Assembly: GCA_014905635.1 (NCBI GenBank) | Contig: JABVCE010000046.1 | Coordinates: 1 to 64,000 of the forward strand | Direction of reading: 5' to 3' | Length of the DNA: 64,000 nucleotides | From: Scenedesmus sp. PABB004 | Lineage: Eukaryota | Shown here: piece by piece, positions 54,214 to 57,200 of the stretch | Numbering within the stretch: position 1 is the stretch's first letter | Layout: every line of letters begins with the position of its first letter | Position numbers and translations under genes: made by a program | The notes under the pieces: model-generated | Told to the model about the DNA's origin: nothing | The model's database searches: none | Seen by the model: only the letters and a program-made list of their open reading frames with translations

Positions 54214-57200
54214 ATGCAGGTCGCGCAGCAGCAGAGCGCGGCCCGGGCCGCCCCCGCCGGCGCGCGCGTCCGGGCGCGGCCGCGCGTGGTGCGCGTGCGC
54301 AGCGCCGCGCCGCACGTCGCGGGCATCCGGGAGGAGGCCATCGAGCGGGGTGCGTGGCTGCTGCCGCATCGCTGCCCGGGCCCCCATTCGGCGCCCGCGC
54401 CCCGCCGCGCCCGCGCCGGCGTCCCGGGCGGCGGCGGGCGGCCCGCTGAGCGTCCCGCGCCGCCGCCCGCGGCGCGGTGGGGCCGCAGGGAAGCACGACA
54501 AGCCGGAGTCCTTCAACGCGCGCTTCGTGCCGTTCAAGGACGTCCAGCAGGGCGTCCTCAGCGGCGAGCAGTACTCCCTGGACACGGTGCAGTACCGCAG
54601 CAAGGATGGCGGCCTGCTCGACGTCTACCACGACATGGACGCCCTGAAGCAGTATGATGCGGCACACTGGAAGAAGCTCTTCGACGGCCGCGTGGGCACC
54701 ACCGCCTGGCCCTACGGCAGCGGCGTGTGGAGCAAGAAGGAGTGGGTGCTGCCGGTGCGGCGGCGGCGGCCCCGCGGCGCCGCGGCGCGCGGCCGGCGGC
54801 TGGCCGGCAGCGGCGCCGCTGCTGCCGGTGCCCGCGCCCGCGCGCGGCGCCGCCGGCGCGCGCGGCGCCCGGGGGGCGGCGGCGGCAGCGCAGCCGGCGC
54901 CGCCTGCTGGACCGGCTGCGGCGGCAGCGGGCGCGGCGACGGCAGCAGCGCGGGGCGCGGCGGCGTCGGCGCGCGGCGGCAGCAGCGACGGCCGCGGCGG
55001 TTGCAGCGCTGCTGCGCCCGCGGCCGCGGCAGCCGCAGCTGCGCCGGCGCCAGCGGCGCCAGCAGCGGCGCCAGCAGCGGCGGCAGCGCCAGCGGCCGCG
55101 CTCCTCCTCCTGCCGCCACCCCGCCCCCTCGACCCTCCCGCGCAGCGCCGCCCCGCCGCCGCCGCCCCCTCAGCCTCGCCGCCCCGCCCGCGCCCTCAAC
55201 CCATAAACCCTTGAATCGCCGCCCCGCACCCCCAGGAGCTGGGCGACGACGACATCGTGTCGATGTTTGAGGGCGGGACCAACCTGTTTTGGGCGGAGCG
55301 CTTTGGCCGCGAGGCGCTCGGGATGAGCGACCTGTGGGTCAAGCAGTGCGGCAACAGCCACACGGGCAGCTTCAAGGACCTCGGCATGACAGTCCTCGTC
55401 TCACAGGTGCGGGGGACGCGGGGTTTGATGTGATGTGACGGCGTTCAATAGTGTGATGGTTGGCGGGCAGGCGCGGGAGGAGCGAGGGGCGGCGGCGCGT
55501 GTAAAGAAGAGTGAGGGCGAGACCCGCGACGCGGGGCGGCGCGCGGCCGGGCGGCGTGTGTGCAGGGGGGCCTGCCTCGAGCCCACCTCACCTGCACCCC
55601 CGCCCGCCCGCCCGCCCGCGCGCCCGCAGGTCAACCGCATCCGCAAGGTCAAGCCCGGGTCCATCAGCGCCGTCGGCTGCGCCTCCACCGGCGACACGAG
55701 CGCCGCGCTCAGCGCGTACTGCGCCGCAGCGGGTGCGGCGGCGCGACGGCTCCGCGGCGGGGGCACACGCGCGCGCCGCGCCGCGCCGCGCGTCGGGGCG
55801 CGCGCGCCGCCGCGCCCCCGGCCCCGCCCCGCGCGCCGCCGCGGCTCGACGAGCGCCCCCGGCTGGCTGGGCTAAACCCCGCGCCGCCCCTGCGCCCGCC
55901 CCTAAACCCCTAAACCCTGCCCCCCAGGCATCCCCAGCATCGTCTTCCTGCCCGCCGACAAGATCAGCCTCGCGCAGGTGGGCGGGGGTGTGGGTGTGGG
56001 TGGGTGTGTGGGTGTGTGGGTGTGGGTGTGTGGGTGTGGAGGGGGGGGGGGGGGGGGGGGGGGGGGGAGGGGGGGGGGGGGGGGGGGGCTGTGTGCGTGC
56101 GGGGACGGCGGCGCGCCGGCGCGCGCGCGCGCGGGGCGCGGCAGCCCCGCGCTGCGCCCGGCAGGCCCGCGCTGCGCCCGGCAGGCCCGCCCGCCCTCGC
56201 GCGCCGCCCTCACGCGCCCCTCCCTCCCCGCCCCGCCTGCCCCGCCGCGTGCGACCCCGTCCCCCCCCCCCCCCCCCCCCCCCCCCGCGCAGCTGGTGCA
56301 GCCGATCGCCAACGGCGCGCTGGTGCTGTCGATTGACACCGACTTTGACGGCTGCATGAAGCTCATCAAGGAGGTGCGCCCCCGCTTGCTTGCTGGGGTT
56401 TAAAGCAGGGGGCGTGACAGGGTTTTGCAGGGGGCTCAGGGGGTCAAAGCGCGCGCGCCTGCCCAACCCGCGCCGTCCCAACCCCCCCGCGCGCCGGCGG
56501 TCTCGCCCGCGCCCCCGCGCCCTCAACCCCGGCGCCCCCGCCCGCCCCTGTTAACCCCCCCCCCCCCTAAACCCCGCCAGGTCACGGCGGAGACGCCGAT
56601 CTACCTCGCCAACAGCATGAACAGCCTCCGCCTCGAGGGCCAGAAGACGGCGGCGATTGAGATCCTGCAGCAGTTTGACTGGCAGGTGCGCCGGCCGGGC
56701 TGGCGCCCGGGGCGCCGGGGGCAGGGGGGGGGGGGGGGTCGGCGGCGGGGGCTCGGGGGCGGGGGCTCGGGGGCGGCGTGCGGCGCGCGGCGCGCGGCAG
56801 CGGCGCGCCGGCCGGGGCGGCCGCGCCGCGCCCCGCCGGACGCCACGGGCCCCAACCCGCGCCCCCTCACGCCCTCCCCCTCCCCCTCCCCCGCTGCTAA
56901 ACCCTCGCCCCTCCTGGCAGGTCCCCGACTGGGTCATCATCCCCGGCGGCAACCTGGGCAACATCTACGCCTTTTACAAGGTGACCCTGGGTGGGGTTTA
57001 GGGGGGATAAGGGGGCAGGGGTTGCAGGCCAGGGTTTAGGGGTGGGTGGAGCCCACGCGCCGCCGGGGAGACCCGCGCGGCGCGGCGCGGGTCCGGCGGC
57101 CACCGCGCGGCCGCGCGCCGCTGCCGCGCCCGCCCTAAGCCCTGCCCCGCCGCCCCGCCCTAAACCCCTCTCTCCCCCCCCTAAACCCCAGGGCTTCAAG

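Follow-up and report, generated by a model that had tools for sequence, protein, structure and literature searches.

A perfect telomere-like inverted repeat near both splice sites of a threonine synthase intron in Scenedesmus sp. PABB004, and the composition of the introns around it

In zebrafish, pairing of the splice sites is enforced by complementary repeats located at the two ends of an intron, and in the (AC)m-(GT)n class of fish introns, correct splice-site pairing in vivo depends on these repeats and splicing does not require U2AF2 (PMC4691745). The same source reports that human introns of the form GGG...CCC are over-represented (PMC4691745). GT/AC repeats near green algal intron ends are also already known: those of Chlamydomonas and Volvox introns are concentrated toward intron-exon junctions, and a role in splicing has been suggested for them (PMC3887541). 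Here, these systems are compared with an intron of a threonine synthase gene of Scenedesmus sp. PABB004 that carries a perfect inverted repeat of a telomere-like motif close to both of its splice sites. The DNA analyzed, referred to below as the window, comprises the first 64,000 nucleotides (nt) of contig JABVCE010000046.1 (GenBank assembly GCA_014905635.1) and has a GC content of 73 to 85% in each 2-kb bin. The interpretation proposed, in which confidence is about evenly balanced, is that of an ordinary, old spliceosomal intron whose inverted repeat comes from the way introns of this lineage are built and whose splice sites are probably bridged by the resulting stem.

The intron occupies positions 56981-57191 of the forward strand, is 211 nt long with GT-AG ends, and lies in phase 0 between exons encoding ...NIYAFYK and GFKMCKELG.... 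Its donor reads AAG/GTGACC. The two arms (TGGGGTTTAGGGGGG and CCCCCCTAAACCCCA) are 15 nt each, 100% complementary, and 169 nt apart; the 5' arm begins at intron position 12, and the last base of the 3' arm is the A of the acceptor AG (57190-57191). The coordinates, sequences, and complementarity of the repeat had been given exactly in a preliminary description of this DNA, as had the placement of one arm 11 nt past the donor and of the other on the acceptor A. In total, the intron holds five copies of the motif, two of the G version within the first 62 nt followed by three of the C version within the last 79 nt, so that complementary repeats stand at its opposite boundaries, as in structure-bridged introns. 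The sole direct repeat adjoining the arms is GGG/GGG, which is uninformative because such a repeat is expected by chance at 80% GC.

The gene was identified as a plant-type threonine synthase from its exon translation (397 matches at E ≤ 1e-3 in a representative protein library), and its exons were mapped by tblastn with seven homologues. Splicing out the 11 mapped introns leaves an open frame of 453 amino acids that ends in a stop codon at 58654-58656. A further intron upstream (54350-54488) was placed by eye against the N terminus of P0006, the other 11 being backed by the open spliced frame. With this upstream intron counted, 56981-57191 is the eighth, and its earlier designation as intron 8 of threonine synthase therefore agrees with homology, the spliced frame, and the upstream intron together.

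The repeat is longer, and the predicted fold more stable, than composition provides. Among 300 dinucleotide shuffles of the entire intron, a single one gave an inverted repeat of at least 15 nt between the intron halves, and the same was true of 300 shuffles that preserved the composition of each half; equally long repeats, which would have deprived the match of meaning had they been common in shuffled introns, were thus rare in either type. Folded alone, the intron reaches -146.2 kcal/mol, compared with -122.3 ± 4.9 kcal/mol for shuffles (z = -4.88, with 0 of 200 as stable), and z is -4.47 against gradient-preserving shuffles, in which composition was kept in four blocks. Such stability over shuffles is a property of structure-bridged introns. 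Pair probabilities within the predicted 15-bp stem are 0.9 to 1.0 for 14 of the 15 pairs and 0.52 for the outermost, and the stem is retained when 60 nt of each flanking exon is included. Its base is 11 nt from the 5' splice site and 1 nt from the 3' splice site. A hairpin closing the intron ends, as originally suggested, is therefore borne out in predicted folding. The inner copies AGGGTTTAGGGG and CCCTAAACCCC, which had been thought to lengthen the stem as a pair, are both present, but the minimum-energy fold pairs the inner G copy with the degenerate third C copy at 57133-57144 instead. The CCTAAA of the middle C copy (57159-57164) is unpaired in this fold, within a 6-nt internal loop. The region of the 5' arm has four G tracts, and a fold that permitted a G-quadruplex gave the same hairpin. 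A scan of the whole window against Rfam returned no match at gathering thresholds.

The composition of other introns in the window was assessed in a set of 27, namely, the 11 homology-checked introns of the threonine synthase gene and 16 predictions based on codon potential and a splice matrix. Fifty predictions were reduced to 20 with a splice-matrix score of ≥6, and four of these were dropped by eye: 28144-28920 contains a known exon, and 7075-7780, 48006-48575, and 61321-61950 have lengths (570 to 706 nt) and coding-like repeats that suggest missed exons. Since hand-picked drops could favor the proposed interpretation, figures without them are also given. Gene strands were taken from homology for threonine synthase, from Pfam matches for other genes (FAE1-type synthase, eIF3j, and GYF, with weaker EF-hand and Sec62 matches), and from a codon-potential scan.

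Intron composition changes from end to end in a regular manner. The first decile of the 27 introns averages G.55, T.14, C.26, and A.05, and the deciles at the other end average C.56 to.59, A.17 to.20, G.14 to.17, and T.07 to.10. Complementing the first decile would give A.14, C.55, G.26, and T.05, to which the last (A.20, C.56, G.17, T.07) comes close because a switch from T to A accompanies that from G to C. In the 5' third, 23 of the 27 introns have a positive GC skew and 21 a positive TA skew; in the 3' third, GC skew is negative in 26 and TA skew in 22. With nothing dropped, GC skew is positive in the 5' third of 26/31 introns and negative in the 3' third of 28/31; with all 50 predictions added to the 11 mapped introns, the corresponding figures are 47/61 and 46/61. 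The exons checked for the same GC and TA skews showed none. Along the threonine synthase gene, the G-minus-C skew has the form of a sawtooth, positive past donors, negative before acceptors, and flat in exons. The repeat types found in one half complement those of the other, with (GTGGGT)n or (GT)n versus (CA)n, poly-G versus poly-C, and GGGTTNAGGG versus CCCTNAACCC. An end-to-end helix of at least 5 bp is present in 23 of 27 minimum-energy folds, and the longest, of 15 bp, is that of intron 56981-57191. Within the same gene, intron 55978-56292 has a 5' half in which (GGGTGT)n is followed by a nearly uninterrupted G tract of about 60 nt, and its acceptor is preceded by about 30 nt consisting of C only; a perfect complement of 27 nt results, which 0 of 300 shuffles reached.

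The motif that forms the arms is itself a recurrent feature of intron 3' ends. The 10-mer CCCTAAACCC/GGGTTTAGGG, exactly 1.4 units of what we take to be the plant-type telomere repeat, has 18 copies on the two strands of the window. The scrambles CCC-AAAT-CCC, CCC-ATAA-CCC, and CCC-AATA-CCC have 0 copies each; CCCGCCGCCC has 16 copies, fewer than CCCTAAACCC, and the 11-mer GGGTTTAGGGG has 11 (0.00 expected). All 18 copies of the 10-mer lie between same-strand exons, 14 as the C version on the sense strand (in 10 introns) and four as the G version (in two introns). The broader pattern CC[CT]TNAA[AC]CC is present in 11/27 confident introns, each time no more than about 90 nt from the 3' end, and its exact reverse complement is present in 2/27, one of them lacking a C partner. 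Of the 22 C copies counted without dropping any predicted intron, 21 are no farther than 100 nt from the 3' end. The CCCTAAACCCC motif stands 3 to 10 nt upstream of the AG in at least four introns besides 56981-57191; copies are found near the acceptors of threonine synthase introns 4, 6, 8, and 10 and of internal introns of other genes, and three introns of unrelated genes share an identical 3' end. The only other sense-strand G copies, at 19984-20000, belong to an intron that has no C copy at its 3' end. A related observation is that the intron at 29264-29519 (reverse strand) of the FAE1-type ketoacyl-CoA synthase gene begins with tandem CAGGGTTTAGCAGGGCCTGG-like units and GGGGTTGAGGGGTTGAG, which are G-side relatives of the telomere-like motif, and has no matching C copies at its 3' end.

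The C version overlaps a sequence resembling a branch site. The branch-site consensus is yUnAy, and some intron-poor protists have fused branch-site and 3' splice-site motifs. In the 27 introns, the last 80 nt contain 46 CTNA tetramers in all and the first 80 nt contain 9, compared with 5 to 20 for scrambled tetramers, and in 22/27 introns a CTNA has its A between 8 and 60 nt from the 3' end, where a branch-site-like CUNA would be placed. CCCUNAACCC likewise contains CUNA and is often just 3 to 25 nt from the AG; it differs from an ordinary branch site in that an intron may have several copies, some of them too near the AG (with the A at -7) for a normal branch point, and its role as one is that of a candidate from sequence. 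The C-type motif may therefore represent a favored form of the branch-site region, and CCCUAAAC, with the CCTAAA at 57159-57164, is the candidate region in intron 56981-57191. Some copies, only 3 to 6 nt from the AG, are too near to be ordinary branch points.

Complementarity was compared within and between introns. Between the first 80 nt and the last 80 nt of different introns, a perfect complement of at least 15 nt is found in 15/506 pairs (3.0%) and one of at least 12 nt in 48/506; for the two ends of the same intron, the numbers are 3/23 and 5/23. Intron ends are complementary in general, and the 15-nt match is therefore not private to 56981-57191; what makes that intron the extreme case is the additional presence of G copies of the 3' motif. 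The same-intron co-occurrence that characterizes structure-bridged introns was not found among these 23 introns. Specific coevolution of the two ends within each intron was also considered, and permutation tests gave it no support. Pairing potential stems from composition and repeats and not from arms matched intron by intron.

An origin of the inverted repeat in lineage-typical intron composition together with a recurrent 3' motif is highly probable. The mechanism proposed starts from the observation that most introns are rich in G/T in the 5' half and in C/A in the 3' half and that the telomere-unit motif CCCTAAACCC is a preferred sense-strand element of intron 3' ends, overlapping a CTNA branch-site-like consensus. 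Intron 56981-57191 holds, in addition, two G-version copies, the rarer form, in its 5' half; these stand opposite the three C copies, and the outermost pair matches over 15 nt. The intron in the pre-mRNA would then most likely zip into a rod-like hairpin in which the 5' splice site remains free at a distance of 11 nt from the stem, the 3' splice site stands at the stem foot, and the CCUAAA branch-site candidate is exposed in an internal loop. The stem could aid splice-site pairing in the manner of the complementary repeats of fish (AC)m-(GT)n introns, and helicases would open it afterward. Judged from the model, formation of the stem in vivo is somewhat better than an even prospect, and a contribution to splicing is a more tentative proposal. 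In favor of a structural role, the switch from T to A that goes with that from G to C is not predicted by a pyrimidine-tract model, and the fish introns offer a precedent (PMC4691745).

Several results weigh against this interpretation. The other 10 threonine synthase introns have z values of -2.62 to +1.94 against gradient-preserving shuffles, and only 56981-57191 is clearly more stable than such shuffles. Four of the 27 introns, two of them in the threonine synthase gene, have no end-to-end helix, and the introns at 57255 and 58324 lack a G-rich 5' end. The 5' end of 56981-57191 matches the 3' ends of three other introns over 14 to 15 nt. Same-intron pairs did not differ significantly from different-intron pairs in permutations of a small sample of 23 introns (p = 0.13 for repeat length, 0.08 for duplex energy, and 0.55 for shared A/T-containing 6-mers); an earlier version of the test, in which short introns whose ends overlap were still included, yielded p = 0.014 for duplex energy. 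The strengths of 5' G-richness and 3' C-richness are uncorrelated (rho = -0.12, p = 0.56). A G/C-rich stem of 15 bp over the last 15 nt before the AG could equally hinder recognition of the 3' splice site. Furthermore, 16 of the 27 introns are predictions made with an acceptor matrix trained on C-rich ends (15 nt only), four were dropped by eye, and all statistics come from one 64-kb window. [quoted passage not shown]

The closest competitor, which is somewhat less probable but has a substantial claim, accepts the same origin and treats the pairing as incidental. The two ends would be separate binding sites, with the G runs and GT-rich repeats past the donor and the C/A-rich tract with CUNA ahead of the acceptor bound by U1/U6, hnRNP-like proteins, SF1/U2, and a C-tolerant U2AF, and complementarity would be a side effect; pairing in vivo would be blocked by proteins, or it would be mildly harmful and removed by helicases. 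Separate sites are consistent with the lack of a significant excess of same-intron over different-intron complementarity, with the independence of 5' and 3' skew strengths, and with the LCAT experiment, which argued against a stem (PMC2481429). They would also account for C-rich 3' ends being near-universal (26/27) and G-rich 5' ends more variable (23/27), the latter absent in some threonine synthase introns, for G-version copies that exist without a C partner, and for the CTNA enrichment, which shows the 3' motif to be meaningful in its own right. A polypyrimidine tract or an enhancer, however, would call for a C/T-rich 3' half, whereas A exceeds T in the 3' half and T exceeds A in the 5' half. 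The near complementarity of the last decile to the first is what a pairing constraint predicts, the gradient spans the whole intron and not just the 30 to 40 nt beside the splice sites, and 56981-57191 is far more stable than its composition gives.

A bolder version of the structural interpretation, which is doubtful at present, is that nearly all introns of this alga of about 80% GC are self-complementary by design, G/T rich in the 5' half and C/A rich in the 3' half, with CCCUAAACCC as the preferred branch-region signal and RNA structure replacing the U-rich tract in pairing the splice sites. Such introns would be a genome-wide algal counterpart, with reversed polarity, of the fish (AC)m-(GT)n introns, GC pressure possibly having erased polypyrimidine tracts, and 56981-57191 would be their clearest single example.

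The preliminary description had also likened the arms to the terminal inverted repeats of an introner-type element. In that case, the intron would be, or would descend from, a nonautonomous DNA transposon with terminal inverted repeats whose insertion created the intron, which is very unlikely. There are likenesses, in that a perfect 15-nt inverted repeat lies near both ends of an intron in a GC-rich, algal-type genome and three introns of unrelated genes end in the identical ...CCCTAAACCCCGCCAG; according to the available text of PMC9860276, terminal inverted repeats occur in some introner families (72 of 177 assessable), GC contents reach 83%, and GC donors are frequent in some families. The same source recognizes introners by at least four introns in unrelated genes with similarity to within about 10 nt of both splice sites (PMC9860276). 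In the window, none of the 26 other confident introns resembles 56981-57191 beyond the 3' motif of 10 to 16 nt, similarity thus stopping short of the 5' boundary. An alignment of five motif-sharing introns has a mean column identity of 59% in sequence of 80% GC and no similar block past the 3' motif, and a repeat search around the intron returned low-complexity matches only. A family with terminal repeats should carry both copies, whereas nine of the 10 introns with a sense-strand C copy have no G copy and only 56981-57191 has both. The left arm starts 11 nt inside the intron, and in place of a target-site duplication of 3 to 9 bp, the only direct repeat beside the arms is GGG/GGG. Both arms are copies of a common intron motif.

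The position of the intron provides separate evidence. Related proteins were examined as 135 clusters (15 short and 120 longer), with short open reading frames (ORFs) from related contigs included. In 21/135, the frame reads past ...NIYAFYK, into Val in 16 (GT donor) and Ala in 5 (GC donor), and the residues that follow are unrelated among the 21 clusters; 12 short fragments run directly into GFKM, with no intron here, while reading through neighboring intron sites. A regular expression had flagged 23 read-through clusters, from which four were reassigned by eye (P0186 and P0270 as contiguous variants, P0222 as an annotated model skipping exons, and P0196 as ambiguous) and to which two ending in VYT (P0180 and P0181) were added. 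The remaining ~99 contiguous clusters consist mostly of spliced or annotated proteins and are uninformative on introns. A G-rich read-through is seen in only one or two relatives (e.g., P0176), and none fits a reading of GGGTTTAGGG. QQFDWQVPDW is contiguous in all 21 clusters, which therefore lack the preceding intron, 56686-56920. That intron, located between FDWQ and VPDW, is present in other relatives, such as P0006 and P0154-P0161, and intron content therefore varies at both neighboring sites.

A position common to 21 clusters whose intron starts differ and are mostly not G-rich implies that the intron is old and predates the repeat. An old position is thus combined with young arms, which is the reverse of the expectation for an intron created by a transposon, and the recent, lineage-specific position expected of an introner was not found. 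As for whether relatives lack the intron, a check proposed in the preliminary description, these 21 clusters share the position and the 12 short fragments lack the intron. A metagenome scan with P0032 yielded 80 loci, of which the closest (L012-L017 and L024, 91 to 92% to P0032) are contiguous over residues 172-408, with no intron at the site; they carry little weight because they look like nearly intronless picoalgae and bacteria.

A role of the motif at the DNA level has just as little probability as a transposon origin. The motif would then be either a telo box of the plant type (AAACCCTA), to which Myb/TRB-like proteins bind in regulating transcription or chromatin, or a short interstitial telomeric tract left by telomerase or repeat expansion, and its inversion would be accidental. 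Telo boxes are known functional elements, share the same core, and place one telomere repeat unit inside genes (PMC3022908), and the motif in the window occurs in both orientations and in tandem arrays of 2 to 2.5 units (19984-20000, 43830-43846, and 55900-55917). Plant telo boxes act on DNA in promoters, 5' untranslated regions (UTRs), and first introns; they are most abundant in 5' UTRs and in introns 1 and 2 and follow a 5' gradient along the gene (PMC3022908). The copies in the window do not follow that distribution: 18/18 lie between same-strand exons and none in flanks or exons, their orientation favors the sense strand by 14:4, and they are tied to the last ~90 nt of introns throughout genes, internal introns included.

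Pure chance in a low-complexity, G/C-rich intron is less probable still: different-intron pairs do reach 15 nt in 3.0% of cases, and poly-G/poly-C and GT/CA tracts give longer complements (27 nt in 55978-56292), but a 15-nt match appeared in only 1/300 shuffles even with each half's composition kept, it rests on a specific A/T-containing motif that is itself strongly over-represented, and the five motif copies are ordered as two G and then three C. A mirtron or small-RNA hairpin, suggested by the coincidence of the 3' end of the stem with the 3' splice site, is hardly credible for a rod of ~200 nt with many interruptions.

Table 1. Positions in the window of the threonine synthase gene, its introns, and copies of the telomere-like motif
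Feature	Coordinates	Strand	Remarks
Threonine synthase gene, first mapped intron to stop codon	54350-58656	+	Homology and open spliced frame; 12 introns
Threonine synthase introns 1-6	54350-54488, 54755-55235, 55407-55629, 55733-55927, 55978-56292, 56374-56580	+	
Threonine synthase introns 7-12	56686-56920, 56981-57191, 57255-57502, 57625-57873, 57990-58219, 58324-58530	+	
5' arm, TGGGGTTTAGGGGGG	56992-57006	+	G-strand telomere-like copy; predicted partner 57176-57190
Inner G copy, CAGGGTTTAGGG	57030-57041	+	Predicted partner 57133-57144
Inner G-side sequence, AGGGTTTAGGGG	57031-57042	+	Inner copy of the preliminary description, present
Third, degenerate C copy, CCCTAAGCCCTG	57133-57144	+	Pairs with 57030-57041 in the minimum-energy fold
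Middle C copy, CCCTAAACCCC	57158-57168	+	CCTAAA at 57159-57164, 28-33 nt from intron end
3' arm, CCCCCCTAAACCCCA	57176-57190	+	C-strand copy
CCCTAAACCCCTAAACCC	55900-55917	+	10 nt before the acceptor of intron 55733-55927
CCCCTAAACCC	56564-56574	+	Within the 3' end ...CCCTAAACCCCGCCAG of intron 56374-56580
3' end ...CCCTAAACCCCGCCAG	27105-27115	-	Intron of FAE1-type ketoacyl-CoA synthase gene; strand from PF08392
3' end ...CCCTAAACCCCGCCAG	43806-43816	-	Intron of EF-hand gene; two further copies upstream at 43830-43846; strand from codon potential and weak EF-hand match
GGGTTTAGGGTTTAGGGG, only other sense-strand G-version copies	19984-20000	-	~35 nt into intron; strand from codon potential only

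Some further features of the window were noted (Table 1 gives the coordinates of the motif copies and introns). Two of the 11 homology-checked introns (57255-57502 and 58324-58530) have GC donors, reading CAG/GCGCG, and GC-AG introns look unusually common, others being predicted on the reverse strand at 29264-29519, 43548-43727, 43800-44323, 52692-53164, and 53228-53560. Directly 3' of the threonine synthase stop codon, at 58657-58760 on the forward strand, the sequence becomes suddenly A/T rich, with CATA/TACA repeats, and this is presumably the 3' UTR or polyadenylation region. A predicted intron of the Sec62-like gene (1126-1300, reverse strand) has a strikingly A/T-rich end, ...CAAAATAACAAAATTCAAATTCAAAAATAACAG, in a window of ~80% GC. 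Stop-free frames of hundreds of codons are found in all six frames across the window because of its GC content. A codon-usage log-odds scan trained on one gene recovered exons of about a dozen genes, including the Sec62-like, FAE1-type synthase, EF-hand, GYF-domain, and eIF3j genes. The FAE1-type synthase and the plant-type threonine synthase point to a genome of the green lineage.

The repeat alone signifies one well-folded intron and not a mobile element and is therefore no evidence on recent intron gain. The wider significance lies in the other introns: ~85 to 95% of those confidently mapped in the window switch from G/T rich to C/A rich, and the telomere-unit motif marks their 3' ends. If genome-wide, this would bear on how the spliceosome recognizes introns when extreme GC content removes U-rich tracts and on whether intron-bridging RNA structure, so far shown in fish, is more widely used. 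The gradient and the CCCTNAACCC/CTNA signal could also sharpen gene prediction in genomes with ORFs in all six frames.

In a keyword search of the open-access literature, no account emerged of introns grading from G/T to C/A, of end complementarity in algal introns, or of CCCTAAACCC as an intron signal in algae, which is no proof of absence. The introns of Chlamydomonas and Volvox are similar to those of the window in being GT/AC-rich green algal introns with repeats near the junctions; the available text of PMC3887541 describes no assignment of repeats to particular ends, complementarity, folding, or telomere-like motif. The short, GC-rich human introns with G and C triplets have G runs past the donor and C runs before the acceptor that are over-represented and can be paired on paper (PMC4691745, PMC2481429). 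They are a minority class in which the gain in stability over shuffles is small (-113.9 versus -111.5 kcal/mol) (PMC4691745, PMC2481429). For 56981-57191, the gain is 24 kcal/mol, and the gradient described here spans the whole intron and includes a switch from T to A.

The (AC)m-(GT)n introns of fish and lamprey differ from the introns of the window in several respects. The fish introns carry AC next to the 5' splice site and GT next to the 3' one, make up 0.09 to 2.29% of introns, and show significant co-occurrence of the repeats within introns (PMC4691745). In the window, G/T is 5' and C/A is 3', 23 to 26 of 27 introns are affected, and co-occurrence is not significant. The repeat in 56981-57191 is a telomere unit, and a splicing role has been shown in fish, whereas sequence and predicted fold are the evidence here. 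By its fold, 56981-57191 resembles a structure-bridged intron, and by same-intron co-occurrence, which showed no excess, its membership of that class is not established. The likenesses to the fish introns nevertheless extend to both sequence and structure, since complementary simple sequences stand at opposite ends and are predicted to form a very stable bridge, and, in fish as here, the repeats are generic and not coevolved arms, individual cases being unconserved between orthologous introns (PMC4691745).

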